Part shown: one piece after another, positions 3,267 to 63,499 of the stretch
Position numbering within the stretch: position 1 is the stretch's first letter
How the letters are laid out: the number at the start of each line of letters is the position of its first letter
Assembly (NCBI GenBank): GCA_040954595.2
Contig: JBECUI020000047.1
Span: 1 to 64,000 of the forward strand
Reading direction: 5' to 3'
Length of the DNA: 64,000 bases
Source: Balanoglossus misakiensis
Taxonomy: Eukaryota > Animalia > Hemichordata
Made by a program: the position numbers and the translations under genes
Notes under the pieces: model-generated
Seen by the model: only the letters and a program-made list of their open reading frames with translations
The model's database searches: none
What the model was told of the DNA's origin: nothing

Positions 3267-3846
3267 ATGAATTCATTTATCAACTCACTCACTCACTCAC
3301 TCACTCACTCACTCACTCACTCACTCACTCACTCACTCACTCACTCACTCACGCGTTAGGACATCATAGGAATACCCTAGCTGAAGCTAAAAAACCTCTT
3401 CTTTTTCCCCTCGCCTTTCTTCTTGTTGTATTTGCCTTGTTATTTTCTTGTGATGGTTCTGGTACCACGGCCGCTCCACAGGAAGAGGCACCACCAGCCA
3501 TTGATGTCCAAACAATCGCCAAGGATGAAACCGAGCAAGGACTCGGTTCTCTGAAGCTCACCTGGGTTGCGGTCCAGGGAAAGAATGCCGAGGGAAACTT
3601 GGTTGATAGTACCTACATGGTAGAGTATCGCCTTTCTACAGAGAGCCATTGGACAAAGTTGGAAGCCGTAGATCAGCCCACCCTTACACTCACTGGCCTG
3701 GAGGCAGGAATGGAGTATTCTATTCGCATACAAGCCATCAGCACCTTTGACGCCAACATGGTCAGTGACTGGACAGAAGCAGGGCCATTTGCTGCAAATG
3801 GAATTAGGCCTTAGAAATCCATGATACTAGTGGAGCCATCAGCGAA
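3267..3846 (+). pseudogene. Truncated SSR-class lipoprotein paralogue B (signal, lipobox LFSC, first FN3 only)
   Basis: Near-identical to the 5' ends of paralogues up to ...GCCATCAGCGAA, where it joins an IS256 end remnant. Confidence 0.8.
3283..3350 (+). repeat. (ACTC)17 simple sequence repeat, out of frame (OFF)
   Basis: 68 nt perfect tract starting 16 nt after ATG 3267; this frame reads ACG CGT TAG right after the tract. Confidence 0.95.
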
Positions 3847-3960
3847 ATGGAGTACAGAAAAGTATTTGAATATGGACTTCTTTAAAGCGATAAGGCAAGA
3901 TGTAAGTTAGGCTCTTTCAACATTGGAGATTTGAAAGTGTGCAAAATTCTTGACACTACC
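3845..3960 (+). mobile_element. IS256-family remnant (transposase 3' end plus terminal inverted repeat)
   Basis: Near-exact reverse complement of 59303..~59418; encodes KWSTEKYLNMD and ends ...AAAATTCTTGACACTACC. Confidence 0.85.
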
Positions 3961-3990
3961 TAAAACATAGGACAAAGAGGTCGGCAGACG

Positions 3991-4569
3991 ATGAAGCAAC
4001 TGTTTAGTGAGAAGATCTGGACTCAAACGAGTAAAAAATTTGTTACTCATAAAACATCATCTTTATTTTTACGTGTTGTATTGAACTCTTCTATTTTTCT
4101 TTACATCCTCTTGGCAATCCTTGCATTTTTGACTGCTTGTGAGAATGCGGGCACATTACCCATGGAAGAAGTATTGAAGATTTCCAATGTGCATGTTACC
4201 CAAGGTGGAAAAACCTATGATACGAGTATCGCAGGCTTTCGGGCGCATATTAATCAGGCAGAAGAATCTACTCCCGGAACCATTGATATTATTTTGCCGG
4301 ATAATGCCATAGTTGATCCGACTGCATACGATGAACTCGCAACTGATCTCATTACAGCAGATACCCCATTAAGTTTTACATTATATAAAAAGAACATTGC
4401 AGACTTTACTATTACGAAGGTTTCGGGAAGTACCTTTGCCGGTAACTCAGAGAAACGTGGAGTAGTGCAGTATAAGTTTATCAAAAAAGATGCACCAGAT
4501 ACATCGTGTATACAATATTACTATTACTCAGGGGCAGCCTCTTATTGTTACCGGTCTAACTATTATTGA
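3991..4569 (+). CDS. Lipoprotein C, N-terminal part (signal peptide, lipobox LTAC); probably continuous with 4490..7615
   Basis: Hydrophobic stretch ending FLTAC; RBS-like AGAGG upstream; overlaps the next ORF at an apparent frameshift ~4490-4505. Confidence 0.6.
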   Translation: MKQLFSEKIWTQTSKKFVTHKTSSLFLRVVLNSSIFLYILLAILAFLTACENAGTLPMEEVLKISNVHVTQGGKTYDTSIAGFRAHINQAEESTPGTIDIILPDNAIVDPTAYDELATDLITADTPLSFTLYKKNIADFTITKVSGSTFAGNSEKRGVVQYKFIKKDAPDTSCIQYYYYSGAASYCYRSNYY

Positions 4570-7615: not shown

Positions 7616-7620
7616 AGCCC

Positions 7621-16160: not shown

Positions 16161-19100
16161 ATGCGCTCAGTCATTATTGCTGTTGCTACAACTTTTCTTG
16201 TTGTAGCGTTTGCTTTTGTTATTTCTTGTGGAGGTGTCGGTACTACAACTGCTCCTCTAGTAAATCCTGCGACTGATCTCTCAGTTACCTTTTCGGCTGC
16301 TGATGAGATTGCTGTTTCATGGGCTGCACCCGATCAGGAAACATACACCTATACCGTTACTCTGCAGGATCCGGATGGCAACATTGTTGCAGAAGAACTG
16401 GCAGAGACCACTACTCATACGTTTACTGGACTCACTCTTTCGCCAAAAACGGTCTACACCGTAGAGGTTACCGTACACAAAGGTGGGGGAACTTCGGAAG
16501 TAATTACCCTTCCCACACCACAAACAGGTGATGTCGTCTCTCCAGGAAGTAGTGTTACGGATGTGCAAGTGCCACAAGCAGAAGAAAGAGGACTGACCGT
16601 TACCTGGACAGCTCCGACAACAACAACACCAGTAGAACACCATCTCATTCGTTTGACACCAAAAGGTGGAACGGCACTGGAAGATATTATAGTACCTGGT
16701 GACGTAAACGAGTATCTCGTCACTGGCTTGGAGCCGGGAACAGAGTATACGGTGTCTGTCATAACCGTCTATACAGAAGGACAGAGCACCGCCATACAGA
16801 CCGAGGTGCAAACAGGGATTGGAACCCTGCAAATTGATCATTTTGAAGCATCAGCAACAGCTATTGATATCTGGTGGCAAGACATTGCACCGCAGGAACT
16901 GACCTATAGCGTCTATTTTTCTTTGGATGAGGCAACGGTCAAAGATGAGGCAAACAAACAAGAAGGTGTAACATACGATGATGCCCAAAGTATGTGGAAA
17001 CTCAGCCTAACCGGACTCACTCCAGAGACTGTCTACCATGTATTTATTCAGGCAACAGGAGCAATTACTGCAGAAAGTGTGGTGGAGCAAGTCACAACAG
17101 GGACATCGGGAGCAGCAGCACCCCCGGCAGTTTCTGTAGATACAATCATCAAAGATGAAACCGAGAAAGAGGTTGGTTCTTTGAAACTGAACTGGGGTCC
17201 TGTCCGAGGAAAGGATGCCGAGGGAAACTTTGTTGATAGTACCTACATGGTAGAGTATAGCCTTCCCCCAGAGACCAATTGGATCAGTGAAACCGTACTT
17301 GTACCCTCCATCACCCTTACTGGGTTAGAGGAAGCAAGTGAGTATAATATTCGCATACAAGCAATCAGTACCTTTGACACAAACATGATGAGTGACTGGA
17401 CCGAAGTATCACTTTTTACGAATGGCATTCGTCCATTAGCGATACACGATAGCAGTGGAGCAATTACTGAGTTAACCATATCAGCAGGAGAAAAAAAGCA
17501 GTTAAGCGTTCCTGCATCCCTCTGGATCAATGTGGATGATACGGCCGTAACATGGACAAGTAGTAGTGATGCAGTGGTAAGGGTCGTTGATGGAGAGGTA
17601 GAAGCAGTAACAGAAGGAACAGCAAGCATAACCGCAACGGCTGTTGCAGATATTCAGAAAACAGTAACCATCGATGTTACGGTGCCCGGATTTGGTCTGA
17701 TTGGATCTGAAGTATCGGCAACGGGTATAAATCTGAACTGGAGTGCCGTCTCAACTGCATTGTTGACATACGAGGTCTATCTCTCGAATAACGAGAACGG
17801 TCTTGTTGAAGCGGGGAATAAGCAGGACGTTCCGGTATTGGATGAGGTAACAAATCGATGGACACTGAGCATAATTGGACTACATCCCGAAACGACCTAC
17901 TATGTTGTTGTTCGTGCAATAGGAGATGGGGGAGTCAGTGTAGAAACAAACACCACCACCATCACGACCGCCCAATCAGGAGCACGAGCACCGGCAGCAG
18001 TTGATGAACATAGCGTTAGCAAGGATGAAGCCGTAAAGGAGATTGGATCACTCAAACTGAACTGGGTTGCTGTCCAGGGAACCGATGTAAATGGAAACTT
18101 CGTTGACAGTACCTATAATGTGGAGTATCGCCTCAGTAGCAGTACTGGATCATGGACGGGGGCATCGCCAAGCTCCAGTCCTACCATTACCCTCACCGGG
18201 TTAACGGGGGCAAGTGAATACTATATTCGTATTCAGGCAGTCAATACTGCTGATTCAAACTTGTCCAGTGCCACAATAGAAGCAGGGCCATTTTTTGCGA
18301 ACGGGATCCACGCATTAGATATCCATGATGCTCAAGGTTACCACGTCACCGAATTGACTCTTACTGTTGGTGAGAGCCAAACGCTGAATGTCCCTGGAAG
18401 ATACTGGGTCAATGTAGAGAATACCTCAGTAAGCTGGGTAAGTAGTGACAATACCATTGTAGAAGTAACAGATGGAAGGGTTGAGGCAATAACAGATGGA
18501 AGTGCCACAATAACGGCAGCGGCAGAAGCAGACTTAACCAATTCTACATCGATAACGGTTACAGTTCCAGGATTAAGCAATGTGGTTCTGTATGGTGAGA
18601 CTAGCCTTACTACTACCTATGGAGAAACAGTTTCGCTTGTTCCTGCACCAACTAATCTACCGGCAGCAGGATTGTCGTTGACCTACACAGGTACGGACAC
18701 TGTCGCGGGCATTACCGTGGCAAACGATGGAACCATAACTATTGGTGACACCACATCGGCAGGGGATCATACCCTGACCATAACAGCGAGTGCCGATGGC
18801 TACACGAGTACGGCAAGTCATCAGATAGCCATAACAGTCAATCCGAAGGCAACGGATGAGTATCTGGTCTATCCAGAAGGAGAATTTACTAGGGGAGAGG
18901 CATATACACCAACTAGATCTGCCCCACCGGAAGCTGGATTGAGTTATGCCATGAATCCAATTCCGACTGGATGGAGCATTGACACAACAAGTGGGACCAT
19001 CTCTATCGCTTCAGATGCAGAAGCTGGGCTACAAACGGTTACTGTAACGGCAAGTCCAAGCAGTACTAACTATGCCCCTGGCAGTGTTGAGTTGTCTAAG

Positions 19101-20246
19101 ACAATTGCCGACCTGACGTCCTTTATAACACGATGGGAAACAACAGAAGCCAATCAAAGGGTGGTGATTCCCGTGGGAGGCGGTACAGCAAGCTATAATA
19201 TAGACTGGGGCGATGGAGCAGCGGTAGAAACACTTTCTGTCACAGCAGGCCATACCTATGCAGAAGCAGGAGAATACACCGTTACGATAAGTAATAGTTT
19301 CCAGCAGATACGGCTGGGAGAAACAACAGCAGAAATAGCAGCACTCCTTAAGTCCATTGATCAGTGGGGCACCGCACAATGGATTAGTATGGGGTTGGCA
19401 TTTGCCAATGCCAGCAACATGACGATGGCAGCAACCGACATTCCTGATCTCTCAGGAGTAACCGATATGTCTTCCATGTTTTCCTCTGCCAGCAGCTTCA
19501 ATGGAGCTATCGGTGGCTGGGACACCTCCAATGTAACCGATATGCGTAACATGTTCTCTGGGACAAGCGTCTTTAATCAGGACTTGAGCAACTGGGACAC
19601 TAGCGCGGTAACCGATATGTCTTTCATGTTTTCCTCTGCCAGCAGCTTCAATGGAGCTATCGGTGGCTGGGACACCTCCAAGGTAACCAAGATGAATAGC
19701 ATGTTCTCTGGGGCAAGCGTCTTTAATCAGGACTTGAGCAACTGGAGCACTAGCGCGGTCACCGATATGAATAACATGTTCGTTGGGGCAAGTGCTTTTA
19801 ATCAGGACTTGAGCAACTGGAACACCTCCAATGTAACCGATATGAGTTTCATGTTCCTTGGGGCAATTGTCTTTAATCAGGACTTGAGCAAGTGGAACAT
19901 CTCCCAGGTAACCAATATGACTAGCATGTTCCTTAATGCAAACCAATTCGTTCAAGACCTCGGTCCATGGTATATTACCTTACCGCAGACGACCATCTCG
20001 GTAGGCACGCCATTAACCATTGCAGCACAGAATAACGTCCTTGAAGCACAACTGGGCAATCCGAAGTACATTCTGCCGGTAGATAGTACAACCGACAACG
20101 ATAAGTTCAGCATTACCAGCGGAACAACCTTGAATGTCGAGAACAGTACTCTGTCTGGTCCCTATACGATAAAGATAGAAGCAGCAGATGCCGATTTTAG
20201 TACACCACTGAACCCAACTGTGGAGTTTAATATAACGGTACCGTAG
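16161..20246 (+). CDS. Long-stalk lipoprotein E (1361 aa, intact): lipobox VISC, multiple FN3, 2 Big_2, PKD-like, 7 DUF285 repeats; no SSR
   Basis: Single ORF with GGAGG RBS; candidate promoter TTGAAA-17-TAAACT at ~16095-16123. Confidence 0.9.
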   Translation: MRSVIIAVATTFLVVAFAFVISCGGVGTTTAPLVNPATDLSVTFSAADEIAVSWAAPDQETYTYTVTLQDPDGNIVAEELAETTTHTFTGLTLSPKTVYTVEVTVHKGGGTSEVITLPTPQTGDVVSPGSSVTDVQVPQAEERGLTVTWTAPTTTTPVEHHLIRLTPKGGTALEDIIVPGDVNEYLVTGLEPGTEYTVSVITVYTEGQSTAIQTEVQTGIGTLQIDHFEASATAIDIWWQDIAPQELTYSVYFSLDEATVKDEANKQEGVTYDDAQSMWKLSLTGLTPETVYHVFIQATGAITAESVVEQVTTGTSGAAAPPAVSVDTIIKDETEKEVGSLKLNWGPVRGKDAEGNFVDSTYMVEYSLPPETNWISETVLVPSITLTGLEEASEYNIRIQAISTFDTNMMSDWTEVSLFTNGIRPLAIHDSSGAITELTISAGEKKQLSVPASLWINVDDTAVTWTSSSDAVVRVVDGEVEAVTEGTASITATAVADIQKTVTIDVTVPGFGLIGSEVSATGINLNWSAVSTALLTYEVYLSNNENGLVEAGNKQDVPVLDEVTNRWTLSIIGLHPETTYYVVVRAIGDGGVSVETNTTTITTAQSGARAPAAVDEHSVSKDEAVKEIGSLKLNWVAVQGTDVNGNFVDSTYNVEYRLSSSTGSWTGASPSSSPTITLTGLTGASEYYIRIQAVNTADSNLSSATIEAGPFFANGIHALDIHDAQGYHVTELTLTVGESQTLNVPGRYWVNVENTSVSWVSSDNTIVEVTDGRVEAITDGSATITAAAEADLTNSTSITVTVPGLSNVVLYGETSLTTTYGETVSLVPAPTNLPAAGLSLTYTGTDTVAGITVANDGTITIGDTTSAGDHTLTITASADGYTSTASHQIAITVNPKATDEYLVYPEGEFTRGEAYTPTRSAPPEAGLSYAMNPIPTGWSIDTTSGTISIASDAEAGLQTVTVTASPSSTNYAPGSVELSKTIADLTSFITRWETTEANQRVVIPVGGGTASYNIDWGDGAAVETLSVTAGHTYAEAGEYTVTISNSFQQIRLGETTAEIAALLKSIDQWGTAQWISMGLAFANASNMTMAATDIPDLSGVTDMSSMFSSASSFNGAIGGWDTSNVTDMRNMFSGTSVFNQDLSNWDTSAVTDMSFMFSSASSFNGAIGGWDTSKVTKMNSMFSGASVFNQDLSNWSTSAVTDMNNMFVGASAFNQDLSNWNTSNVTDMSFMFLGAIVFNQDLSKWNISQVTNMTSMFLNANQFVQDLGPWYITLPQTTISVGTPLTIAAQNNVLEAQLGNPKYILPVDSTTDNDKFSITSGTTLNVENSTLSGPYTIKIEAADADFSTPLNPTVEFNITVP

Positions 20247-20255
20247 CCATTTCCG

Positions 20256-20292
20256 AAAAACAGCGGGGCTTTAGTGCTCCGCTGTTTTTTTG
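20256..20292 (+). terminator. Intrinsic terminator
   Basis: AAAAACAGCGGGGC-TTTAGT-GCTCCGCTG followed by T8. Confidence 0.8.
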
Positions 20293-20569
20293 ACTATAGT
20301 TTTATCCCCTCCACAGCCCCCCCATTGTTGTATCAATAACCCCTGCGCAATCTATCTGATTTGATTGAAACTTTCCCTTTGCGCATTATCTTTTTAAGGC
20401 TCTTGGGCTGATAGGGGACTCTGTCTCGGGTTACAAAGATGTGGCTGCTCTGCTTGCTTATAGCCAAAGCAGCCAAACGGACAGCTATGCCACCGGGATT
20501 GTCTCTGGGGGGTAGTTTACAAGGTACCATAACCAACAGCTACCGCTACGACAAGCAGATCATCCCCTG

Positions 20570-21659
20570 AGCAATACTAACTATGCAGGGGGGAGTGTTG
20601 CATTGACTAAGTCTGTTGCCGCCCCGTCGTCCTTTGTAACACTACCTGGGAAACAACAGCAGCCAATCAAAGCGTGGTGATTCCCGTGGGAAGTCGTACA
20701 GCAAGTTATGATATAGACTGGGGCGATGGAACGGTAGAAACACTTTCTCCACAGCAAGCATACCTATGCAGCAGCAGGGGAATACACAGTTACGATAAGT
20801 AATAGTTTCCACTAGATACGGCTGACAGATACAACAGCAGAAATAGCAGCACGCCTTAAGTCCATTGATCAGTGGGGCACAGCACAATGGATTAGTATGG
20901 GGGGGGCATTTGCCAATGCCAGCAACATGACGATGGCAGCAACCGACATTCCTGATCTCTCAGGAGTAGCCGATATGGGTTCCATGTTTGCCTCTGCAAG
21001 CAGCTTCAATGGAGCTGTCGGTGGCTGGGATACGTCAAATGTAACTGATATGGGTAGCATGTTCTCTGGGGCAAGTGCCTTCAATGGAGCACTTAGTGGT
21101 TGGGATACGTCAGTGGAATAAACCATATAGGGGGATTAGTAGAAGTATTTGGGCTTGGAGTGTTTTGGATATAGTACTGCCACGATCGAAGCGAGAAGCG
21201 CAGATATATCCTATTCTGCCTATGGTGGGTTAGTCGGGAAGTTGGAGGATGCCAGAGTACTAACTTTCCTTTATTACACGAACAGGATTGCAACAAGCAG
21301 ACATTGGAGGATTAACGGGTGATATATTTAATGCAAACAGACAAGAACTATATGGGTATTATAGTGCCGTAACTACTGGATTATCCGCCGACCAGGCCTA
21401 CTATGAACTGAAAGACGAGGATGGGCACTCCCGACAATATCCTGTACACCTATTGGGACGACGATGGCGATTCTACTACCACAACTGCTGGTACGGAACT
21501 GTTTGCGAATACATGTGGGTTTACCATTCATCAAAACTCAGGCGGAACTGCGACCATTTTGGAGACTGGGTCTGGTTGGGAAACGGCAAAGCACCAAGAC
21601 TCTGGGATACGGATGAGAAACGCTACCTTGGCGATCAGCCCATACACAAGGAAGAATAG
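20570..21659 (+). pseudogene. Chimeric relic: PKD/DUF285 fragment fused to a GLUG C-terminal fragment
   Basis: 20570-21110 matches the PKD + first DUF285 repeats with stops; 21110-21659 matches 15105-15717 (HFGDWVWLGNGKAP...DEKRY.GDQPI). Confidence 0.75.
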
Positions 21660-21839
21660 TAGAGAAAATGCTTTACCCCCCTTATCCTTATAATCTCTAT
21701 TTCGACATCCCAAAAACCTCCGTTTTATAAGCTTTTTTTTGGGGGGGGATTTGCTTCTTTCACAGTATTATACTTGAAACTTTTACCTTTCTGCATTAAA
21801 CTTCTTCGTTAGTACTTTATACTGCTTTGGAGGTTTATA

Positions 21840-24800
21840 ATGCGCTCAGTCATTATTGCTGTTGCTACAACTTTTCTTGTTGTAGCGTTTGCTTTTGTTA
21901 TTTCTTGTGGAGGTGTCGGTACTACAACTGCTCCTCTAGTAAATCCTGCGACTGATCTCTCAGTTTCCTTTTCGGCTGCTGATGAGATTGCTGTTTCATG
22001 GGCTGCACCCGATCAGGAAACATACACCTATACCGTTACCCTGCAGGATCCGGATGGCAACATTGTTGCAGAAGAACTGGCAGAGACCACTACTCATACG
22101 TTTACTGGACTCACTCTTTCGCCAAAAAACGGTCTACACCGTAGAGGTTACCGTACACAAAGGTGGGGGGAACTTCGGAAGTAATTACCCTTCCCACACC
22201 ACAAACAGGTGATGTCGTCTCTCTAGGAGTAGTGTTACGGATGTGCAAGTGCCACAAGCAGAAGAAAGAGGACTGACCGTTACCTGGACAGCTCCGACAA
22301 CAACAACACCAGTAGAACACCATCTCATTCGTTTGACACCAAAAGGTGGAACGGCACTGGAAGATATTATAGTACCTGGTGACGTAAACGAGTATGTCGT
22401 CACTGGCTTGGAGCCGGGAACAGAGTATACGGTGTCTGTCATAACCGTCTATACAGAAGGACAGAGCACCGCCATACAGACCGAGGTGCAAACAGGGATT
22501 GGAACCCTGCAAATTGATCATTTTGAAGCATCAGCAACAGCTATTGATATCTGGTGGCAAGACATTGCACCGCAGGAACTGACCTATAGCGTCTATTTTT
22601 CTTTGGATGAGGCAACGGTCAAAGATGAGGCAAACAAACAAGAAGGTGTAACATACGATGATGCCCAAAGTATGTGGAAACTCAGCCTAACCGGACTCAC
22701 TCCAGAGACTGTCTACCATGTATTTATTCAGGCAACAGGAGCAATTACTGCAGAAAAGTGTGGTGGAGCAAGTCACAACAGGGACATCGGGAGCAGCAGC
22801 ACCTCCGGCAGTTTCTGTAGATACAATCAGCAAAGATGAAACCGAGAAAGAGGTTGGTTCTTTGAAACTGAACTGGGGTCCTGTCCGAGGAAAGGATGCC
22901 GAGGGAAACTTTGTTGATAGTACCTACATGGTAGAGTATAGCCTTCCCCCAGAGACCAATTGGATCAGTGAAACCGTACTTGTACCCTCCATCACCCTTA
23001 CTGGGTTAGAGGAAGCAAGTGAGTATAATATTCGCATACAAGCAATCAGTACCTTTGACACAAACATGATGAGTGACTGGACCGAAGTTATCACTTTTTA
23101 CGAATGGCATTCGTCCATTAGCGATACACGATAGCAGTGGAGCAATTACTGAGTTAACCATATCAGCAGGAGAAAAAAAGCAGTTAAGCGTTCCTGCATC
23201 CCTCTGGATCAATGTGGATGATACGGCCGTAACATGGACAAGTAGTAGTGATGCAGTGGTAAGGGTCGTTGATGGAGAGGTAGAAGCAGTAACAGAAGGA
23301 ACAGCAAGCATAACCGCAACGGCTGTTGCAGATATTCAGAAAACAGTAACCATCGATGTTACGGTGCCCGGATTTGGTCTGATTGGTTCTGAAGTATCGG
23401 CAACGGGTATAAATCTGAACTGGAGTGCCGTCTCAACTGCATTGTTGACATACGAGGTCTATCTCTCGAATATCGAGAACGGTCTTGTTGAAGCGGGGAA
23501 TAAGCAGGACGTTCCGGTATTGGATGAGGTAACAAATCGATGGACACTGAGCATAATTGGACTATCTCCCGCAACGACCTACTATGTTGTTGTTCGTGCA
23601 ATAGGAGATGGGGGAGTCAGTGTAGAAACAAACACCACCACCATCACGACCGCCGAATCAGGAGCACGAGCACCGGCAGCAGTTGATGAACATAGCGTTA
23701 GCAAGGATGAAGCCGTAAAGGAGATTGGATCACTCAAACTGAACTGGGTTGCTGTCCAGGGAACCGATGTAAATGGAACCTTCGTTGACAGTACCTATAA
23801 TGTGGAGTATCGCCTCAGTAGCAGTACTGGAACATGGACGGGGGCATCGCCAAGCTCCAGTCCTACCATTACCCTCACCGGGTTAACGGGGGCAAGTGAA
23901 TACTATATTCGTATTCAGGCAGTCAATACTGCTGATTCAAACTTGTCCAGTGCCACAATAGAAGCAGGGCCATTTTTTGCGAACGGGATCCACGCATTAG
24001 ATATCCATGATGCTCAAGGTTATCACGTCACCGAATTGACTCTTACTGTTGGTGAGAGCCAAACGCTGAATGTCCCTGGAAGATACTGGGTCAATGTAGA
24101 GAATACCTCAGTAAGCTGGTTAAGTAGTGAAAATACCATTGTAGAAGTAACAGATGGAAGGGTTGAGGCAATAACAGATGGAAGTGCCACAATAACGGCA
24201 GCGGCAGAAGCAGACTTAACAATTCTGCATCGATAACGGTTACAGTTCCAGGATTAAGCAATGTGGTTCTGTATGGTGAGACTAGCCTTGCTACTACCTA
24301 TGGAGAAACAGTTTCGCTTGTTCCTGCACCAACTAATCTACCGGCAGTAGGATTGTCGTTGACCTACACAGGTACGGACACTGTCGCGGGCATTACCGTG
24401 GCAAACGATGGAACCATAACTATTGGTGACACCACATCGGCAGGGGATCATAACCTGACCATAACAGCGAGTGCCGATGGCTACACGAGTACGGCAAGTC
24501 ATCAGATAGCCATAACAGTCAATCCGAAGGCAACGGATGAGTATCTGGTCTATCCAGAAGGAGAATTTACTAGGGGAGAGGCATATACACCAACTAGATC
24601 TGCCCCACCGGAAGCTGGATTGAGTTATGCCATGAATCCAACTCCGACTGGATGGAGCATTGACACAACAAGTGGGACCATCTCTATAGCTTCAGATGCA
24701 CAAGCTGGGGTAGAACAAACGGTTACTGTAACGGCAAGTCCAAACAATCCTAACTATGCCCCTGGCAGTGTTGAGTTGTCTAAGACAATTGCCGACCTGA

Positions 24801-26452
24801 CGTCCTTTATAACACGATGGGAAACAACAGAAGCCAATCAAATGGTGGTGATTCCCGTGGGAGACGGTACAGCAAGCTATAATATAGACTGGGGCGATGG
24901 AACGGAAGAAACACATGCTGTCACAGCAAGTCATACCTATGGAGAAGCAGGAGAATACACCGTTACAATAAGTAATAGTTTCCAGCAGATACGGCTGGTA
25001 GAAACAACACAAGAAATAGCAGCACGCCTTAAGTCCATTGATCAGTGGGGCACCGCACAATGGATTAGTATGGAGGGGGCATTTGCCAATGCCAGCAACA
25101 TGACGATGGCAGCAACCGACATTCCTGATCTCTCAGGAGTAACCGAGATGTCTTCCATGTTTGCCTCTGCCATCAGCTTCAATGGAGCTATCGGTGGCTG
25201 GGACACGTCAAATGTAACCGATATGTCTTACATGTTTGCCTCTGCTAGCAGCTTCAATGGAGCTATCGGTGGCTGGAACACGTCCAAAGTAACCAATATG
25301 GCTGGCATGTTCTCTGGGACCAACGTCTTTGATCAGGACTTGAACAACTGGGACACTAGCGCGGTCACCGATATGTCTTACATGTTTGCCTCTGCCATCA
25401 GCTTCAATGGAGCTATCGGTGGCTGGGACACGTCAAATGTAACCAATATGAATGGCATGTTTGCCTCTGCTAGCAGCTTCAATGGAGCTATCGGTGGCTG
25501 GAACACGTCCAAAGTAACCAATATGGATAGTATGTTCTCTGGGAACCAACGTCTTTGATCAGGACTTGAACAACTGGGACACTAGCGCGGTCACCGATAT
25601 GTCTTACATGTTTGCCTCTGCCATCAGCTTCAATGGAGCTATCGGTGGCTGGGACACGTCAAATGTAACCAATATGAATGGCATGTTTGCCTCTGCTAGC
25701 AGCTTCAATGGAGCTATCGGTGGCTGGAACACGTCCAAAGTAACCAATATGGATAGCATGTTCTCTGGGACCAACGTCTTTGATCAGGACTTGAACAACT
25801 GGGACACCTAGCGCGGTCACCGATATGTCTTACATGTTTGCCTCTGCCATCAGCTTCAATGGAGCTATCGGTGGCTGGGACACCTCCAATGTAACCACTA
25901 TGCGTAACATGTTCTCTGGGGCAAGCGTCTTTGATCAGGACTTGAACAACTGGAGCACTAGCGCAGTCACCGATATGTATAGCATGTTCGCTGGGGCAAG
26001 TGCTTTTAATCAGGACTTGAGCAACTGGAACACCTCCAATGTAACCGATATGGTTTTCATGTTCCTTGGGCAATTACCTTTAATCAGGACTTGAGCAAGT
26101 GGAACATCTCCCAGGTAACCGATATGAATGCCATGTTCTTTGGGGCAAACGAATTCGTTCAAGACCTCGGTCCATGGTATATTACCTTACCGCAGACGAC
26201 CATCTCGGTAGGCACGCCATTAACCATTGCAGCACAGAATAACGTCCTTGAAGCACAACTGGCAATCCGAAGTACATTCTGCCGGTAGATAGTACAACCG
26301 ACAACGATAAGTTCAGCATTACCAGCGGAACAACCTTGAATGTCGAGAACAGTACTCTGTCTGGTTTCTATACGATAAAGATAGAAGCAGCAGATGCCGA
26401 TTTTAGTACACCACTGAACCCAACTGTGGAGTTTAATATAACGGTACCGTAG
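21840..26452 (+). CDS. Long-stalk lipoprotein F, near-copy of E with 14 DUF285 repeats; many 1-nt frameshifts (pseudogene or sequencing errors)
   Basis: Colinear with 16161..20246 through ORF pieces 21840-22184, 22243-22839, 22718-23134, 23073-24236, 24263-25558, 25566-25811, 25825-26094 and 26091-26288; conserved ...ITVP-TAG at 26450-26452. Confidence 0.75.
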
Positions 26453-26461
26453 CCATTTCCG

Positions 26462-36748: not shown

Positions 36749-36757
36749 ATCCAGCAT

Positions 36758-40349: not shown

Positions 40350-40358
40350 ATCCAGTCT

Positions 40359-46516: not shown

Positions 46517-46931
46517 GACTATAGTTTTACCCCCTCCACAGCCCCCCCATTGTGGTATCAATAACTCCTGCGTAATCTATCTGATTTGATTGAAACTTGC
46601 CCCTTGAGTATTATCTTTTTAAGGCTCTTGGGCTGATAGGGGACTCTGTCTCGGGTTAGAAAGATGTGGCTGCTCTGCTTGCTTATAGCCAAAGCAGCCA
46701 AACGGGCAGCTATGCCACCGGGATTGTCTCTGGGGGGGGGAGTAGTTTACAAGGTACCATAACCAACAGCTACCGCTACGACAAGCAGACCCCCCCCTGA
46801 CAACACTCCCCCCAAGACCTCTGGCAGCGCCGTAATTCTGAAGCAACTAAAACCCAACCCGGTACACCTCCACCGAAACTGGCAATCCAGGCTGGACCGC
46901 CGATAACTGGATCATCGCTGGCCCGGTAAAC

Positions 46932-47400
46932 GCCCCCCCCGGCCAGCCCGACATCAATAACCTCCCTGGTAACCCCAAGGCTCCCCATTCCTGGCAGCCC
47001 CCCCCAGACCCCCCACTCCTGGCAGCCCCCCCCAAGGCCCCCCACTCCTGGCGGGCCCTGGGAGGCTTCCCGAAAAAGATAAATATGTCCCACCTCACCC
47101 CCACTCCCGGCAGCCCACCTTCAAGGCCCTCACTCCCGGCAGCCCCCAAGGCCCCCACTCCTGGCAGCCCCCCCCAAGGCCCCCCACTCCTGGCGGGCCC
47201 TGGGAGGCTTCCCGAAAAAGATAAATATGTCCCACCTCACCCCCACTCCCGGCAGCCCACCTTCAAGGCCCTCACTCCCGGCAGCCCCCAAGGCCCCCAC
47301 TCCCGGCAGCCCCCCACTTCTGGCGGGCCTTGGGGGCTGCCGCAAAAAGATCAATATGTCCCACCTCACCCCCCCAGACCGGACCACCCCCACTCCAAAC
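46932..47400. repeat. C-rich repeat block (longest, with ~140-bp internal tandem duplication)
   Basis: GGCGGGCCCTGGGAGGCTTCCCGAAAAAGATAAATATGTCCCACCTCACCCCCACTCCCGGCAGCCCACCTTCAAGG occurs at ~47050 and ~47192. Confidence 0.8.
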
Positions 47401-47520: not shown

Positions 47521-47578
47521 TTGACAAAAAGTGTCACTACGAATAGGATAGACCAAACAAAACCAAATTTTTAAGGAG
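47521..47578 (+). promoter_or_regulatory. sigma70-type promoter plus RBS
   Basis: TTGACA 47521-47526, 17 bp, TAGGAT 47544-47549. Confidence 0.7.
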
Positions 47579-47587
47579 ATCCAGCAT

Positions 47588-50363
47588 ATGAATTCATTTA
47601 TCAACTCACTCACTCACTCACTCACTCACTCACTCACTCACTCACTCACTCACTCACTCACTCACTCACGCGTTAGGACATCATAGGAATACCCTAGCTG
47701 AAGCTAAAAAACCTCTTCTTTTTCCCCTCGCCTTTCTTCTTGTTGTATTTGCCTTGTTATTTTCTTGTGGTGGTTCTGGTACCACGGCCGCTCCACAGGA
47801 AGAGGCACCACCAGCCATTGATGTCCAGACAATCGCCAAGGATGAAACCGAGAAAGAAATCGGTTCTCTGAAGCTCACCTGGGTTGCTGTCCAAGGAAAG
47901 AATGCCGAGGGAAACTTGGTTGATAGTACCTACATGGTAGAGTATCGCCTTTCTACAGAGAGCAATTGGACAAAGTTGGAAGCCGTAGATCAGCCCACCC
48001 TTACACTCACTGGCCTGGAGGCAGGGGAGTACTACATTCGCATACAAGCCATCAGCACCTTTGACGACAACATGGTCAGTGACTGGACAGAAGCAGGACC
48101 ATTTGCTGCAAATGGAATTAGGCCCTTAGAAATCCATGATACTAGTGGAGCCATCAGCGAACTGACTCTTGCAATCGGAGAGACCCGGACGCTGAGTGTC
48201 CCGGGAAGCCTCTGGGTCAACGTAGAGGATACCTCAGTAAACTGGGTAAGTAGTGATAACACCATTGTAGAAGTAACAGATGGCATGGTTGAGGCAATAA
48301 CAGAGGGAAGTGCCACAATAACGGCAACATCAGGAGCAGACCCGGCCAATGCGGCATCGATAACGGTGAATGTTCCAAGCTTAAGTGATGTGGTTCTGTA
48401 TGATGAGGATAGCCTTACTATTCCCTATGGAGAAAGCGGTTCGCTTCTTCCTGCACCGAGTCATCTACCATCAGCAGGATTGTCGTTAACCTACACAAGT
48501 TCGGGCACTGTCTCGGGCCTTACCGTGGGAACCGATGGAACCATAACTATTGATAACACGACCCCAGCAGGAACCTATACCCTGAACATAACAGCAAGTG
48601 CCGCTGGCTACACGAGTACGGCAAGGCATGAGATAGCCATAACGGTCAGTCAGAGGGCAACAGAAGAGTATCTGGTCTATGCGGAAGGAGATTTTACCAG
48701 AGGAGTAAGCTATGCACCAGCTACAGCTCCCCCACAGGAAGCTGTAGTGAGTTATACCATGAATCCAACTCCGACTGGATGGAGCATTGACGCAACAAGT
48801 GGGACAATCTCTATAGCTTCAGATGCACCAGCTGGGGTAGAACAAACGGTTACTGTAACGGCAAGTCCAAGCAATCCTAACTATGCCTCTGGCAGTGTTG
48901 AGTTGACTAAGTCTGTTGTCGTCCCGACGTCCTTTATAACACGATGGGAAACAACAGCAGCCAATCAAAGCGTGGTGATTCCCGTGGGAAGCAGTACAGC
49001 AAGCTATGATATAGACTGGGGTGATGGAACGGTAGAAACACTTTCTGCCACAGCAAGTCATGTCTATGCAGAAGCAGGAGAATACACAGTTACAATAAGT
49101 AATAGTTTCCAGCAGATACGGCTGCTAGATACAACAGCAAAAATAGCAGCACGCCTTAAGTCTATTGATCAGTGGGGCACAGCACAATGGATTAGTATGG
49201 GGGGGGCATTTGCCAATGCCATCAACATGACGATGGCAGCAACCGACGTTCCTGATCTCTCAGGAGTAGCCGATATGAGTTACATGTTTTACTCGTACCT
49301 TGGGACAAGTGCCTTCAATGGAGATATCGATAGCTGGGACACGTCAAATGTAACTAATATGGCTTACATGTTCTATGGGGCAGTTAACTTTAATCGGGAC
49401 TTAAACAACTGGGACACCTCCAATGTAACGAATATGGCTTACATGTTCTTTGGGGCAGCTAACTTTAATCGGGACTTAAACAACTGGGACACCTCCAATG
49501 TAACGAATATGGCCCGCATGTTTTCCGGCGCAACCGCCTTCAATGGGAATATCAAAGACTGGAATACGTTAAGTGTAACGAATATGGCTTACATGTTTAA
49601 CTATGCAGTCAATTTCAATGGAGATATCAGTGGCTGGGACACGTCAAGTGTAACCAATATGGGAGGTATGTTCCTGAGTGCAGGCTCCTTTAATGCAGAT
49701 ATCAGTAACTGGAAGGTTGGCGCGGTAACAGATATGGGAGGGATGTTCCAAGCTGCAGTTGCTTTTAATAGGGATATCGGTCGCTGGGATACGTCAAATG
49801 TAGCAGATATGGACAGTATGTTCCATACCGCAAGAGCTTTTAATAGTGATATCGGTCGCTGGGATACGTCAAATGTAGCAGATATGGGAGAGATGTTCCA
49901 TACCGCAAGAGCTTTTAATAGGGATATCGGTCGCTGGGATACGTCAAATGTAACAGATATGGGAGATATGTTCCGTTCCGCAAGTATCTTTAATGCAGAT
50001 ATCAGTAACTGGAACATCACTAAGGTAACCAATATGACTGACATGTTCGTTGAGGCATGGAGATTCGCTCAAAACCTTGGCCCATGGTATATTACCTTAC
50101 CGCAGACCACCATCTCGGTAGACACGCCATTAACCATTGCAGCACAGAATAGCATCCTTGCAGGACAGCTGGAAAATCCACAGTACAGTCTGCCGACCGA
50201 TGCCACGCTCGACAACGATAAGTTTAGCATTACCGACGGAACGACCTTGAAAGTCAATAATGGTACTGATCCCGGCAACTATACTATAAGCATACAAACA
50301 ACAAGTGCCGATTTTAGTACACCACTCGACCCAATTGTGCAGTTTATGATAACGGTACAGTAG
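47588..50363 (+). CDS. SSR-class phase-variable lipoprotein L (11 DUF285 repeats); intact apart from SSR phase
   Basis: Single ORF 47754..50363 downstream of the SSR. Confidence 0.9.
47604..47667 (+). repeat. (ACTC)16 SSR, OFF
   Basis: 64 nt after ATG 47588. Confidence 0.95.
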
Positions 50364-50372
50364 CCATTTCCG

Positions 50373-50408
50373 AACAACAGCGGGGCTTTAGTGCTCCGCT
50401 GTTGTTTT
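50373..50408 (+). terminator. Terminator hairpin
   Basis: Same conserved hairpin after the stop codon. Confidence 0.7.
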
Positions 50409-50820
50409 GACTATAGTTTTACCCCCTCCACAGCCCCCCCATTGTGGTATCAATAACTCCTGCGTAATCTATCTGATTTGATAGAAACTTTTCCCTTTGG
50501 CATTATCTTTTTAAGGCTCTTGGGCTGATAGGGGACTCTGTCTCGGGTTACAAAGATGTGGCTGCTCTGCTTGCTTATAGCCAAAGCAGCCAAAGGGACA
50601 GCTATACCACCGGGATTGTCTCTGGGGGGGGTAGTTTACAAGGTACCATAGCCAACAGCTACCGCTACGACAAGCAGACCCCCCCCTGACACCATCACCC
50701 CCAAGACCTCTGGAAGCGCCGTAATTCTGAAGCAACTAACCCCCAACCCGGTACACCTCCACCGAAACTGGCAATCCAGGCTGGACCGCCGATAACTGGA
50801 TCATCGCTGGCCCGGTAAAC

Positions 50821-56522: not shown

Positions 56523-59100
56523 ATGCGTTCAATTTTTATTGCAACAACTTTTCTTCTTGTTGTATTTGCCTTGTTATTTTCTTGTGATGGCACGGCCGCT
56601 CCACAGGAAGAGGCACCACCAGCCATTGATGTCCAGACAATCGCCAAGGATGAAACCGAGAAAGAAATCGGTTCTCTGAAGCTCACCTGGGTTGCTGTCC
56701 AAGGAAAGAATGCCGAGGGAAACTTGGTTGATAGTACCTACTTGGTAGAGTATCGCCTTTCTACAGAGAGCAATTGGACAAAGTTGGAAGCCGTAGATCA
56801 GCCCACCCTTACACTCACTGGCTTGGAGGCAGGAATGGAGTATTCTATTCGCATACAAGCCATCAGCACCTTTGACGCCAACATGGTCAGTGACTGGACA
56901 GAAGCAGGACAATTTGCTGCAAATGGAATTAGGCCCTTAGAAATCCATGATACTAGTGGAGCCATCAGCGAACTGACTCTTGCAATCGGAGAGACCCGGA
57001 CGCTGAGTGTCCCAGAAAGCTTCTGGGTCAACGTAGAGGATACCTCAGTAAGCTGGGTAAGTAGTGATAACACCACTGTAGAAGTAACAGATGGCATGGT
57101 TGAGGCAATAACAGAGGGAAGTGCCACAATAACGGCAACATCAGGAGCAGACCCGACCAATGCGGCATCGATAACGGTGAATGTTCCAAGTTTAAGCAAT
57201 GTGGTTCTGTATGATGAGGATAGCCTTACTATTCCCTATGGAGAAAGCGATCCCTTATCCTCACACCGAGTGATCTACTCTTACCAGGATTGTCTTTAAC
57301 CTACACAAGTTCGGGCACTGTAGCGGGCATTACCGTGGGAACCGATGGAACCATAACTATTGATAACACAACACAAGTAGGCACGTATACCCTGGACATA
57401 ACAGCAAGTGCGGATGGCTACACGAATACGGCAAGCCATCAGATAGCCATAACGATCAGTCAGAGGGCAACAGAAGAGTATATGGTCTATGCAGAAGGAG
57501 AATTTACCAGGGGAGAGGCATATGCACCAGCTACAGCTGCCCCACAGGGAGCTGGAGTGAGTTATGCCATGAATCCAACTCCGACTGGATGGAGCATTGA
57601 CGCAACAAGTGGGACCATCTCTATCGCTTCAGATGCACCAGCTGGGGTAGAACAAACGGTTACTGTAACGGCAAGTCCAAGCAATCCTAACTATGCCGCT
57701 GGCAGTGTTGAGTTGACTAAGTCTGTTGCCGCCCCGCCGTCCTTTATAACACGATGGGAAACAACAGAAGCCAATCAAAGCGTGGAGATTCCCGTGGGAA
57801 GCAGTACAGCAAGCTATGATATATCCTGGGGCGATGGAACGGAAGACACACTCTCTGGTATAGCACGCCATACCTATGCAGAAGCAGGAGAATACACAGT
57901 TACAATAAGTAATAGTTTCCAGCAGATACGGCTGCTAGATACAACAGAAGAAATAGCCGCACGATTGAAGTCTATTGATCAGTGGGGCACAGCACAATGG
58001 ATTAGTATGGAGGGGGCATTTGCTAATGCCATCAACATGACGATGGCAGCAACCGACGTTCCTGATCTCTCAAGAGTAGCCAATATGGGTTTCATGTTTA
58101 CCTCCTACATTGGGGCAAGTGCCTTCAATGAAGATCTCAACAATTGGGATACGTCAAATGTGACCAATATGGCTAACATGTTCTATGGGGCAAATGCCTT
58201 CAATGGAGATATCAGTAGCTGGAACACAGAAAAAGTAATCAATATGGCTTTGATGTTCTATGGGGCAAGTGTCTTCAATGGAGATATCAGCAACTGGAAA
58301 ACATCAAATGTAACAGTTATGAGTTCCATGTTTGGTTTTGCACGTAGTTTCAATCAAGACTTGAGTCGCTGGGACACCGCCAAGGTAACGGATATGCGTG
58401 GGATGTTCCAGAGCGCAACCGCCTTCAATGGAGATATCAGTCGCTGGAACACCGACGAGGTAACCCGTATGGATGAAATGTTCTATGGGGCAAGTGTCTT
58501 CAATGGAGATATCAGTAGCTGGAACACAGAAAAAGTAACCAATATGAGTAACATGTTCAGTGGGGCAACCTCATTCAATGGAGATATCAGCAACTGGAAC
58601 ACAGAAAAAGCAACCAATATGCGTAGGATGTTCTATGGGGCAAATGCCTTCAATGGAGATATCAGCAACTGGAACACAGAAAAAGTAACCGATATGAGTC
58701 TTATGTTCAATGGGGCAGGAGCATTCAATCAGGACTTGAGTGGCTGGGTTGTCTCCCAGGTAACCAATATGTTTGTAATGTTCAATGGGGCAGACAACTT
58801 TAAACAGGATCTCGGACCATGGTATATTACCTTACCGCCGACCACCATCTCGGTAGACACGCAATTAACCATTGCAGCACAGAATAGCATCCTTGCAGGA
58901 CAGCTGGGAAATCCGCAGTATAGTCTGCCGACCGATGCCACGACCGACAACGATAAGTTCAGCATTAGCAACGGAACAACCTTGAATGTCAATAATGGTA
59001 CTGATCCCGGCGACTATACCATAAGCATACAAACAACAAGTGCCGATTTAGCACGCCACAGGAGCCAATTGTGCGGTTTGCTATAACGGTAGTACCGTAA
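56523..59100 (+). CDS. Lipoprotein O: short-stalk body with SSR-free leader [21 protein letters not shown]; 10 DUF285 repeats; two 1-nt indels
   Basis: ORFs 56466-57299 and 57290-59086; indels at ~57252 and ~59047; stop TAA 59098-59100. Confidence 0.8.
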
Positions 59101-59144: not shown

Positions 59145-59352
59145 GACTATAGTTTTACCCCCTCCACAGCCAGCCCCCCCACTGTGGTATCAATAACTCC
59201 TGCGCAATCTATCTGATTTGATAGAAACTTTGCCCTTTGAGCATTATCTTTTTAAGGCTCTTGGGCTGATAGGGGACTCTGTCTCGGGTTACAAAGATGT
59301 GGGGTAGTGTCAAGAATTTTGCGCACTTTCAAATCTCCAATGTTGAAAGAGC

Positions 59353-60378
59353 CTAACGTACATCTTGCCTTATCGCTTCAAGTAAGTCCATATTCAAATA
59401 CTTTTCTGTACTCCATTTTGTTCCCATGATGTACCTGAGCCTGGCAGCTGATAGCATAAGGGCCGAATCCCCATCGGGGAAATGTTCTGCTAGTATGGTT
59501 CTTCGAACCAGGGTTCTTCGAACCAGGGTTCTTCGAACCAGGGTTCTGCGTTTGATTTCTTTCATGATTCTTTCAAGAGGATTATTAGTCCTGATCCGAA
59601 TCCAATGTTCCTGAGGGAAATACCTATGCTCAAGAGTTTCGTGGATATAGTTTTTCACCATGTTAGCAGCCTTGGAAGTTCCATATTGCGGAGTTTCGCT
59701 TCAATCAGTTGAGCCTTCTCAAGAGCAGCATCACGATCTTCTTGCGCATAAGAATTGCCTTCTCAGCATTGCTGCAACTTCACGGACCTTCTCACGGGGA
59801 ACCACCTGAGAATACATTCCGGTAATAGTGAACAACGCATCGTTGCCATCGTGCTTTAGGGAAAAACTTTTCGATGGATTCAGGCCAATCCGATGCATTT
59901 GTCGCTGCCGAAGTAGGGACAGGTCGCGACCTGTCCCTACTCCTTGATGAGTTGATTCCGCCAAGTATTGATTCTCTACTAAGAGATCCTGGTTCAAATT
60001 GCTCATTGTCCCAGGGCTTTATCTTGGTTCCCCAAAGGGCCTCGGTAATATCTTTAACTCGGCGCACTGAAACACCAGCTAAATACATTTCAACTAAGGC
60101 TTCTTCAACGGATGTTTCCTGGCGTTTATAACGCTCAATAATTGCTGTTTCGAATGGAAGCCGAAGTAGGGATATCCAACTTCCTGGTGTAATGTCCGGC
60201 ACGAGTATCTTTTCGTGCATCCGTAGGTTCGTATTTTTCAGCCTGAAGTAAAGGATCTGCCTCCGCATTGAGCATGGCATTCAAGGTTTCCTCATACGGT
60301 TTCTTTAACCATTTGGCTGCTCTGTAGGAGATCTTCATCGATCTGTATGATCTCTCCCCGTGGGGTCTCTGACTTCAT
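59353..60378 (-). pseudogene. IS256-family (Mutator-type) transposase pseudogene
   Basis: ATG 60378 with GGAGG RBS; split over several frames; central region deleted near 59912-59945. Confidence 0.85.
59912..59941. repeat. Perfect 30-bp palindrome (GTAG-type REP-like)
   Basis: AGTAGGGACAGGTCG|CGACCTGTCCCTACT. Confidence 0.8.
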
Positions 60379-60482
60379 TTTGTCCTCCGTGTGAATGGTT
60401 TTACATTCGATTCCATTTCAACATTGGAGGACATTTTTTTTCAATGCCTTTTTAGAATGTGCGCAATTTTTTAAACACTACC

Positions 60483-60680: not shown

Positions 60681-60799
60681 CAATAAAACAGAAAATAATC
60701 TTAAAAAACTTGGTTATTCCTCTAAAACGTAATAAGCTTTTATACCGTAGTGTCCTTATAGCTTCTTAATCAAAAAGTCTTCTGCTTATAAGAAAAGAC

Positions 60800-60857
60800 T
60801 TGACAAAAAGTGTCACTACGAATAGGATAGACCAAACAAAACCAAATTTTTAAGGAG
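60800..60857 (+). promoter_or_regulatory. sigma70-type promoter plus RBS
   Basis: TTGACA 60800-60805, 17 bp, TAGGAT 60823-60828. Confidence 0.7.
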
Positions 60858-60866
60858 ATCCAGCAT

Positions 60867-63499
60867 ATGAATTCATTTATCAACTCACTCACTCACTCAC
60901 TCACTCACTCACTCACTCACTCACTCACGCGTTAGGACATCATAGGAATACCCTAGGGAATACCCTAGGGAATACCCTAGCTAAAGCTAAAAAACCTCTT
61001 CTTTTTCCCCTTGCCTTTCTTCTTGTTGTATTTGCCTTGTTATTTTCTTGTGATGGTTCTGGTACCACGACCGCTCCACAGGAAGAGGCACCACCAGCCA
61101 TTGATGTCCAGACAATCGCCAAGGATGAAACCGAGCAAGGACTCGGTTCTCTGAAGCTCACCTGGGTTGCTGTCCAGGGAAAGAATGCCGAGGGAAACTT
61201 GATTGATAGTACCTACTTGGTAGAGTATCGCCTTTCTACAGAGAGCAATTGGACAAAGTTGGAAGCCGTAGCTCAGCCCACCATTACACTCACTGGCTTG
61301 GAGGCAGGAAGGGAGTATTCTATTCGCATACAAGCCATCAGCACCTTTGATGCCAGCATGGTCAGTGACTGGACAGAAGCAGGGCCCTTTACTGTGAATG
61401 GAATTCGGCCCTTAGAAATCCATGATACTAGTGGAGCCATCAGCGAACTGACTCTTGCAATCGGAGAGACCCGGACGCTGAGTGTCCCGGGAAGCCTCTG
61501 GGTCAACGTAGAGGATACCTCAGTAAGCTGGATAAGTAGTGATAACACCATTGTAGAAGTAACAGATGGCATGGTTGAGGCAATAACAGAGGGAAGTGCC
61601 ACAATAACGGCAACATCAGGAGCAGACCCGACCAATGCGGCATCGATAACGGTGAATGTTCCAAGTTTAAGCAATGTGGTTCTGTATGATGAGGATAGCC
61701 TTACTATTCCCTATGGAGAAAGCGGTTCGCTTCTTCCTGCACCGAGTCATCTACCATCAGCAGGATTGTCGTTAACCTACACAAGTTCGGGCACTGTCTC
61801 GGGCCTTACCGTGGGAACCGATGGAACCATAACTATTGATAACACGACCCCAGCAGGAACCTATACCCTGGACATAACAGCAAGTGCGGATGGCTACACG
61901 AGTACGGCAAGGCATGAGATAGCCATAACGGTCAGTCAGAAGGCAACAGAAGAGTATCTGGTCTATGCGGAAGGAGATTTTACCAGAGGAGTAAGCTATG
62001 CACCAGCTACAGCTGCCCCACAGGGAGCTGGATTGGGTTATGCCATGAATCCAACTCCGACTGGATGGAGCATTGACGCAACAAGTGGGACCATCTCTAT
62101 AGCTTCAGATGCACCAGCTGGGGTAGAACAAACGGTTACTGTAACGGCAAGTCCAATCAATACTAACTATGCCGCTGGCAGTGTTGAGTTGACTAAGTCT
62201 GTTGTCGTCTCGACGTCCTTTATAACACGATGGGAAACAACAGCAGCCAATCAAAGCGTGGAGATTCCCGTGGGAAGCAGTACAGCAAGCTATGATATAG
62301 ACTGGGGCGATGGAACGGTAGAAACACTTTCTGCCACAGCAAGTCATGTCTATGCAGAAGCAGGAGAATACACAGTTGCAATAAGTAATAGTTTCCAGCA
62401 GATACGATTGCTAGATACAACAGAAGAAATAGCAGCACGCCTTAAGTCTATTGATCAGTGGGGCACGGCAAGCTGGGTTAGCATGGAGTCGGCATTTGCC
62501 AATGCCAGCAACATGACGATGGCAGCAACCGACGTTCCTGATCTCTCAGGAGTAGCCGATATGAGTGCCATGTTTGCCTCGTACAGTGGGGCAAGTGCCT
62601 TCAATGGAGATATCGATAGCTGGGACACGTCAAATGTAACTAATATGACTGACATGTTCTATGGGGCAGTTAACTTTAATCGGGACTTAAACAACTGGGA
62701 GACCTCCAAAGTAACGACTATGGTTCGCATGTTCTCTGGGGCAGCTAACTTTAATCGGGACTTAAACAACTGGGACACCTCCAAAGTAACGACTATGGGT
62801 CGCATGTTTTTCGGCGCAACCGCCTTCAATGGAGATATCAGTGGCTGGGACACGTCAAATGTAACCAATATGGGAGGTATGTTCCGGCGTGCAGGCTCCT
62901 TCAATGCAGATATCAGTAACTGGAAGGTTGGCGCGGTAACAGATATGGGAGGGATGTTCGAATTGGCAGTTGCTTTTAATAGGGATATCGGTGACTGGGA
63001 TACGTCAAGTGTAACAGATATGAGAGAGATGTTCTTTTCCGCAGCTGCTTTTAATTGGGATATCGGTCGTTGGGTTACGTCAAATGTAACCGATATGGGA
63101 AATATGTTCCACAGGGCAAGTGCCTTTAATGCAGATATCAGTAACTGGAACATCACCAAGGTAACCAATATGACTGACATGTTCGTTTATGCAACGAGAT
63201 TCGCTCAAAACCTCGGCCCATGGTATATTACCTTACCGCAGACCACCATCTCGGTAGCCACGCCATTAACCATTGCAGCACAGAATAGCTTCCTTGCAGG
63301 ACAGCTGGAAAATCCACAGTACAGTCTGCCGACCGATGCCACGACCGACAACGATAAGTTCAGCATTACCAACGGAACAACCTTGAATGTCAATAATGGT
63401 ACTGATCCCGGCGACTATACCATAAGCATACAAACAACAAGTGCCGATTTTAGCACACCACAGAGTCCGATTGTGCAGTTTATGATAACGGTACAGTAG
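60867..63499 (+). CDS. SSR-class phase-variable lipoprotein P (9 DUF285 repeats); intact apart from SSR phase
   Basis: Single ORF 61037..63499 downstream of the SSR; the leader has three in-frame copies of GGAATACCCTAG (60945-60980). Confidence 0.9.
60883..60926 (+). repeat. (ACTC)11 SSR, OFF
   Basis: 44 nt after ATG 60867. Confidence 0.95.

Follow-up and report, generated by a model that had tools for sequence, protein, structure and literature searches.

The window analysed here, by which the whole stretch of 64,000 nt from contig JBECUI020000047.1 of the Balanoglossus misakiensis assembly GCA_040954595.2 is meant (forward strand, positions 1 to 64,000), carries an array of bacterial surface-protein paralogs, seven of which are near-identical and have a pure run of the tetranucleotide ACTC shortly behind the start codon. 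Exactly seven runs of three or more ACTC units were found, all on the plus strand and none on the minus strand, and in 200 rounds of shuffling the window the longest run was 3 units. The plus-strand position follows from the genetic code, because ACTC is free of stops in all three frames and its reverse complement is not. A tract unit spans ~3.5 kb and is composed of a C-run array, the promoter-like site TTGACA-17-TAGGAT, a Shine-Dalgarno (SD) sequence, ATG, the tract, the lipoprotein gene, TAG and a hairpin; promoter-like site (spacer 17 or 18 nt), SD and hairpin are present in each copy, as consensus matches only. The tract copies and an eighth paralog are listed below, with ON and OFF meaning in and out of frame with the lipoprotein.

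3200..3845, plus strand: tract copy 1, TTGACA-17-TAGGAT at 3200, SD at 3252, ATG at 3267, (ACTC)17 at 3283-3350
33201..35904, plus strand: tract copy 2, (ACTC)13 at 33284-33335, OFF; 1-nt homopolymer frameshift near 34400 as assembled
36691..39387, plus strand: tract copy 3, (ACTC)11 at 36774-36817, OFF; homopolymer frameshifts at ~37176 and ~37583 as assembled
40292..42991, plus strand: tract copy 4, (ACTC)14 at 40375-40430, OFF; downstream frame intact, 852 aa
43793..46471, plus strand: tract copy 5, (ACTC)13 at 43877-43928, OFF; intact, 846 aa; promoter spacer 18 nt
47521..50363, plus strand: tract copy 6, (ACTC)16 at 47604-47667, OFF; intact, 897 aa; Big_2, PKD-like and DUF285 repeats
60800..63499, plus strand: tract copy 7, (ACTC)11 at 60883-60926, OFF; intact, 856 aa
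51198..54091, plus strand: eighth paralog, whose 3-unit tract is interrupted; reads in frame between ATG 51267 and ...LLFSC; promoter spacer 19 nt

The seven tracts are perfect, comprise 11-17 units, start 16 nt after the A of the ATG and have flanks of identical layout, and every ATG is preceded by the SD sequence AAGGAG. All seven are out of frame as assembled (0/7 ON), and the recount agreed in 7/7 with the positions and counts given in an earlier note on this DNA. When n mod 3 = 2 (4 copies) the native frame ends in ...SLTR*, and when n mod 3 = 1 (3 copies) in ...SRVRTS*; both OFF frames are closed by TAG, within 2 and 5 codons, as the same note had described, giving peptides of 22-32 aa. 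The third frame encodes a basic stretch, a hydrophobic stretch and then LLFSC, and it could be fixed as the reading frame because the eighth copy is in frame. Between tract and lipobox Cys, a search for in-frame ATG, GTG, TTG, CTG, ATT, ATC, ATA and ACG gave only a TTG four codons before the Cys, in 7/7 copies, which bears out a further statement of that note. Annotation pipelines would start these genes at MLFSC and so lose both signal peptide and switch. For the window design alone, the early closure of the OFF frames gave p=0.11 against a synonymous recoding null.

The 380 tract bases contain no substitution; in the flanks, 1.6% and 2.2% of sites depart from the majority (P=0.002 and 0.0003). 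With flanks that are ~2% different, the seven copies show five different tract lengths. Tract purity and length spread would fit ongoing slippage. The frameshift switch proposed in the earlier note is supported by these substitution-free tracts, by the in-frame paralog at 51267 and by the occurrence of this leader design in other genomes, where orthologous alleles cover all three frame states. The seven ACTC tracts are thus considered likely to be slipped-strand on/off switches of surface-lipoprotein genes, of the opa/hgp/autB type. That selection favours OFF beyond the neutral 2/3 in the array goes a step further, and we lean towards it with modest confidence.

The four intact OFF copies contain no nonsense codon. 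Copy 1 has a signal peptide and lipobox, and its gene is cut at ~3845 by an IS256 end. In copy 7 an in-frame 12-nt repeat is present three times at 60945-60980 (twice, imperfectly, in the 51267 copy), which makes the leader longer and leaves the frame unchanged. The eighth paralog has the same upstream region as the tract copies and a frameshift near 53785 as assembled; with its 19-nt spacer and this frameshift it may be poorly expressed.

The array proteins contain Fn3-like, Big_2, PKD-like and DUF285 (PARCEL) domains. PF03382 (DUF285) was matched with 524 bits (cut-off 25) and TIGR02167 with 208 bits (cut-off 30), in tandem 25-residue repeats, and the two proteins matching the Mbov_0838 family (NF045896) reached 258 and 169 bits, below its cut-off of 500 bits. 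The hydrophobic (h-) region, with a maximum hydropathy of 3.3, and the LLFSC lipobox were read from the sequence, and the products are predicted to be surface-exposed or secreted lipoproteins. Modelled with AlphaFold (pLDDT 87), the C-terminal 485 aa aligned to leucine-rich repeat (LRR) solenoids with Z of 15-18 at 4-11% identity, Foldseek gave weak LRR matches only (TM 0.11-0.29), the ESM Atlas returned generic immunoglobulin-like (Ig)/Fn3 clusters, and a solved structure related to PARCEL by sequence was not found. The PARCEL part is accordingly predicted as an LRR-like solenoid, and from this modelled fold and the residue types a binding role of the array proteins would be expected.

Diversification is concentrated at variable positions of the PARCEL repeat. 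The ratio of nonsynonymous to synonymous differences (pN/pS) was obtained throughout by simple counts without recombination control. For the four intact copies it was 0.95-2.11 in the PARCEL array, as against 0.42-0.81 in the Ig part and 0.07-0.56 at the C-terminus. Variable positions 7, 17, 18, 21, 22 and 24 were taken from 276 repeats of 44 other proteins, replacing an earlier post hoc choice of a "face". In same-slot repeats of six copies, these positions gave a pN/pS of 4.5 when set against all synonymous changes and the rest gave 0.57; within the six variable positions alone it was ~2.3. On the model the variable positions may lie on one binding face of the solenoid. The nearest neighbour among the copies shifts along the gene in a mosaic-like manner, and the PARCEL region of the eighth paralog is strongly diverged from the tract copies (pS ~0.5).

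The same leader design was found in a large family of a cultured strain, Orbaceae bacterium ac157xtp (G001, complete genome, C1, loci L208-L240), where four end-anchored patterns revealed 33 dispersed ACTC tracts of n=8-40, each followed by a frame (434-486 aa or more) for a paralogous secreted protein; one member of the family recurs in the GTDB locus set described below. Both OFF frames are closed within 6 codons in 33/33, and counted from the conserved start 1 gene is in frame while 19 and 13 are in the two other frames (p=2.7e-5 against 1/3). In one further gene an in-frame TTG lies upstream, and 0/33 genes have a start with an SD between the tract and the cleavage site. The conserved start region is also similar to an extended -10 box, and the family proteins show a weak Invasin_D4 match.

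In addition, a GTDB scan for SD-ATG-(ACTC)6 gave 55 loci at 54 distinct sites, of which the 34 with a downstream frame of at least 150 aa were kept and 20 dropped. A hydrophobic leader was present in 29/34 of them and in 25/54 control open reading frames (ORFs; p=3e-4). Among 21 loci pruned by hand, one per genome or family, both OFF frames were closed within 16 codons in 16-17, as against 1/25 leader-bearing controls, and closure in the GTDB set came earlier than in synonymous recodings (p=1e-4). Among the matches listed, at least 119 metagenome and 3 viral loci were present; 59 were dropped as too close to the end of a contig and 45 for want of a long frame, and the 18 kept form 11 clusters. 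One cluster is an N6/N4 DNA methylase gene with a 5' (ACTC)7-12, occurring as ON and OFF alleles; alleles 97-99% identical have n=7 (ON), 8 (OFF) and 9 (OFF), which is direct evidence that ACTC tracts vary by whole units between alleles. The methylase loci are L175 (1216-2040, minus strand), L176, L177, L061, L064, L080 and L114, and L175 and L177 lie on IMG/VR contigs of ~233 kb, which suggests a phase-variable methylase on a large phage-like element. Metagenome-assembled genomes (MAGs) of Phycisphaerae contain an RCC1-like secreted paralog family with ACTC leaders, 3/9 ON by the strict count in sets of 2/6 and 1/3 (L004, L010, L014, L017, L020, L022, L031 and L044). Large ACTC families can thus be strongly OFF-biased while scattered loci are not, and the 0/7 of the window fits either regime, leaning to the biased one.

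Several known systems are comparable. The opa genes of Neisseria encode beta-barrel proteins at dispersed loci and carry CTCTT pentamer repeats; they exist as many self-contained copies, each switched in its leader, with hypervariable exposed parts and mosaic exchange. The array resembles opa in being multi-copy and leader-switched, with own signals per copy and diversified positions, and differs by the ACTC tetramer and the clustered lipoproteins. Neisseria autA/autB have AAGC repeats in the DNA of the signal sequence, and autB is OFF in nearly all meningococci and in frame in 28% in Haemophilus (PMC5118866). As here, a tetranucleotide tract follows right after the start codon within the signal sequence; it is OFF in most genomes and the remaining gene is intact (PMC5118866), which in the window is so in four of the seven copies. 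The autA/autB genes are single autotransporter loci, and in the window the repeat unit is ACTC and the lipoprotein paralogs stand in tandem. The hgp genes of Haemophilus influenzae, with CCAA repeats and 1-4 haem-uptake receptors, are likewise paralogous surface-protein genes each with a variable tetranucleotide tract, with interrupted tracts among the paralogs; unlike them, at least seven clustered PARCEL lipoproteins are found here, and the hgp paper gave no match to ACTC or TGAG (PMC2651432). PARCEL/DUF285 lipoproteins of Mycoplasma have homopolymer or TA contingency variable-number tandem repeats in their 5' flanks, and a poly-G frameshift tract was proposed in M. agalactiae MAG1330/MAG3260 (PMC2996958). 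Since the same repeat domain sits on repeat-switched lipoproteins there, the kind is already described; the tetranucleotide in-frame switch, the Fn3/Big_2/PKD stalk, 47% GC and the tandem array are different here (PMC2996958). Literature on ACTC/TCAC/CACT/CTCA repeats with phase variation was not found, nor was any relevant to Orbaceae phase variation, phase-variable jumbo-phage methyltransferases or contingency loci of free-living bacteria or MAGs, most subscription journals lying outside the search. The switching mechanism is textbook; here it would gate a clustered repertoire of predicted repeat-protein binders with a diversifying face, in a lineage without close relative in the collections searched.

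In the proposed mechanism, each unit would be transcribed from its own sigma-70-type promoter, and replication slippage would add or remove whole ACTC units. Two of the three states would give a peptide of 22-32 aa and then a stop. In the remaining state a lipoprotein would be made, composed of an extended n-region rich in SLTH, an Ig-like stalk and an LRR-like solenoid with a binding face that varies from copy to copy; ON alleles of 20-22 units do occur naturally. A gene would be made only in cells whose tract had slipped to a multiple of three units. The population could then maintain a range of binding or antigenic variants: most cells would have any given locus OFF and display few members of the repertoire, and selection by host, phage or cost might keep most copies OFF. 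A wider and decidedly tentative picture, which we think rather doubtful, would make the array a library for stochastic display. Positive selection would have diversified one face of the LRR-like PARCEL binders, gene conversion assisted by G-quadruplexes would reshuffle them, and selection on the ACTC tracts would keep roughly one copy per cell ON. Early stops built into ACTC leaders would then be a recurrent, undescribed solution across phyla, with up to 33 genes and exactly one ON in an Orbaceae isolate. With the leader design in many phyla and a cultured Orbaceae strain at 1/33 ON, a long-standing question, namely how most genes of a large contingency family are kept OFF, becomes testable in a tractable isolate.

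Several results weigh against a selected switch array. Length variation was seen between paralogs in the window and between alleles of other ACTC loci only. The scattered GTDB loci were ON in 7/34 (strict) or 10/34 (loose), which is compatible with 1/3 (two-sided p 0.15-0.72), and the metagenome and viral clusters, among the matches listed, were ON in 3/11 with no excess of OFF; early closure was also weaker in this set, at 6/11 (p=0.027; 0.11 for leader-bearing genes). The downstream frame is intact in 4/7 copies (846-897 aa), while two are frameshifted as assembled and one is truncated. The coding DNA of the paralogs, 23.6 kb in all, contains nine +-1 frameshifts, each private to one copy; the alignment showed eight of them, located in short runs of a single base (in one case judged from the copy's own sequence), and the ninth came from tblastn. 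They look like residual long-read error, real decay being the alternative, and given them the unit counts may be off. For diversification, the pN/pS of whole repeats was ~1.8, not significantly above 1 (p=0.12). In addition, a second assembly of these genes was not found by a GTDB protein scan, by the exact 5' pattern in metagenomes, by exact look-up of 10 proteins or by tblastn against the collected loci; an N-terminal word search gave one weak match, and HMMER over representatives gave domain-level matches only (27-42%).

It is quite possible that the switches are real and unselected and that 0/7 ON arose by chance, an explanation which touches the selection sub-claim only. The one-sided p is 0.059, or 0.13 for five independent copies, and copies of equal n share the same SD-ATG spacer allele (13/13; 11/11); the GTDB, metagenome/viral and Phycisphaerae counts given above are near neutral as well. 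The Orbaceae family and meningococcal autB, nearly always OFF (PMC5118866), speak for selection. The earlier note had suggested selection for OFF as the majority state; the 33-member Orbaceae family supports this, the window does not establish it, and the scattered single loci contradict it. That the tract lengths are long-read consensus errors, with some or most genes really in frame, appears unlikely: the private homopolymer frameshifts do resemble unpolished long-read sequence, but the ACTC tract contains no homopolymer, errors would not make seven long pure tracts, random unit miscounts would tend to ~1/3 ON and not zero, and the same OFF design is present in many independent assemblies. 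The argument in the earlier note that lengths of exact multiples of 4 speak against indel error carries little weight, because 380 tract bases free of indels are expected at the assembly indel rate with P=0.86, and whole-unit miscounts would also keep multiples of 4.

Permanent silence of the tract copies, either as decaying pseudogenes or as cassettes that donate sequence by gene conversion to copies without a tract or in frame, is also improbable. In its favour are the truncation of copy 1 by IS256, the presence in the window of pseudogene fragments and of a truncated hisI, the mosaic-like neighbour shifts and the G-quadruplex-type motifs upstream of every unit. Each copy nevertheless retains a promoter-like site, SD, ATG, terminator-like hairpin and pure tract, with four intact frames, and the distance of the in-frame copy's PARCEL region from the tract copies means that it is not receiving their sequence. 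Bypass of the tract by an ATT start near the SD, by re-initiation at the TTG or by ribosomal frameshifting, with unit number only tuning expression, is considered very improbable. ATT triplets do occur in both alternative frames, 4 and 8 nt downstream of the A of the ATG; initiation at ATT is usually weak, a product from the TTG would have no signal peptide, and in the 33 genes of the Orbaceae strain SD-backed starts after the tract are absent and the in-frame class is the depleted one.

The slipped-strand switch remains the preferred reading, and the elements around the units were recorded as follows.

50364..50412, plus strand: terminator-like hairpin after the TAG of copy 6
46922..47391, minus strand: C-run arrays (G-quadruplex type), upstream of the copy 6 promoter
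2719-3071, 32813-32996, 36384-36562, 39877-40163, 43441-43663, 46922-47391, 50849-50992 and 60521-60611: C-run sites

Similar hairpins lie 3' of the other five complete copies (-21.7 to -28 kcal/mol); that of copy 6 was missed by a consensus terminator scan. All minus-strand C-run motifs of the G-quadruplex (G4) type, 24/24, sit 5' of the eight promoters, with 1 on the plus strand. The pilE G4 promotes recombination, and by analogy the C-run motifs could do so too. A poly-C run of 19 lies at 2726-2744, upstream of copy 1. The A-run in the -35/-10 spacer has a length of 5, 6 or 7 (spacer 17, 18 or 19), as seen at 43793 and 51198, which is possibly a second, promoter-level switch or else a homopolymer error.

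The window contains further relatives of the array genes and one mobile element.

1..2283, plus strand: 3' part of a further paralog, its 5' end outside the window
16161..32299, plus strand: three longer Fn3-rich DUF285 lipoprotein paralogs without tract, starting at 16161, 21840 and 28053
56523..59100, plus strand: tract-less paralog, its signal peptide short and of ordinary type, MRSIFIAT...LLFSC; frameshifted at two homopolymers as assembled
3845..3960, minus strand: IS256-like end, matching that of the 59296-60480 element with 96% identity over 116 nt
59296..60480, minus strand: fragmented IS256-family transposase

The tract-less paralog at 56523 has the same h-region and lipobox as the tract copies; like the in-frame copy at 51267 it serves as a natural control and speaks for the switch reading. 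Of the three longer paralogs the first (16161) alone is intact as assembled. ORFs that overlap and change frame one after another at 3991-7615 and 9984-15717 suggest that single large lipoprotein genes were broken up by frameshifts, and 13009-15717 gave no Pfam match. A duplicated block at 20570-21830 and 26779-28050 contains decayed PKD/PARCEL fragments with identical lesions; because the lesions are shared, some decay in the region is real. Amid the surface-protein cluster, a truncated hisI (94 aa) was found at 9477-9761, and its product is 65-74% identical to the proteins that it matched, the named ones being from Balneolaceae, Planctomycetota and Rhodospirillaceae.

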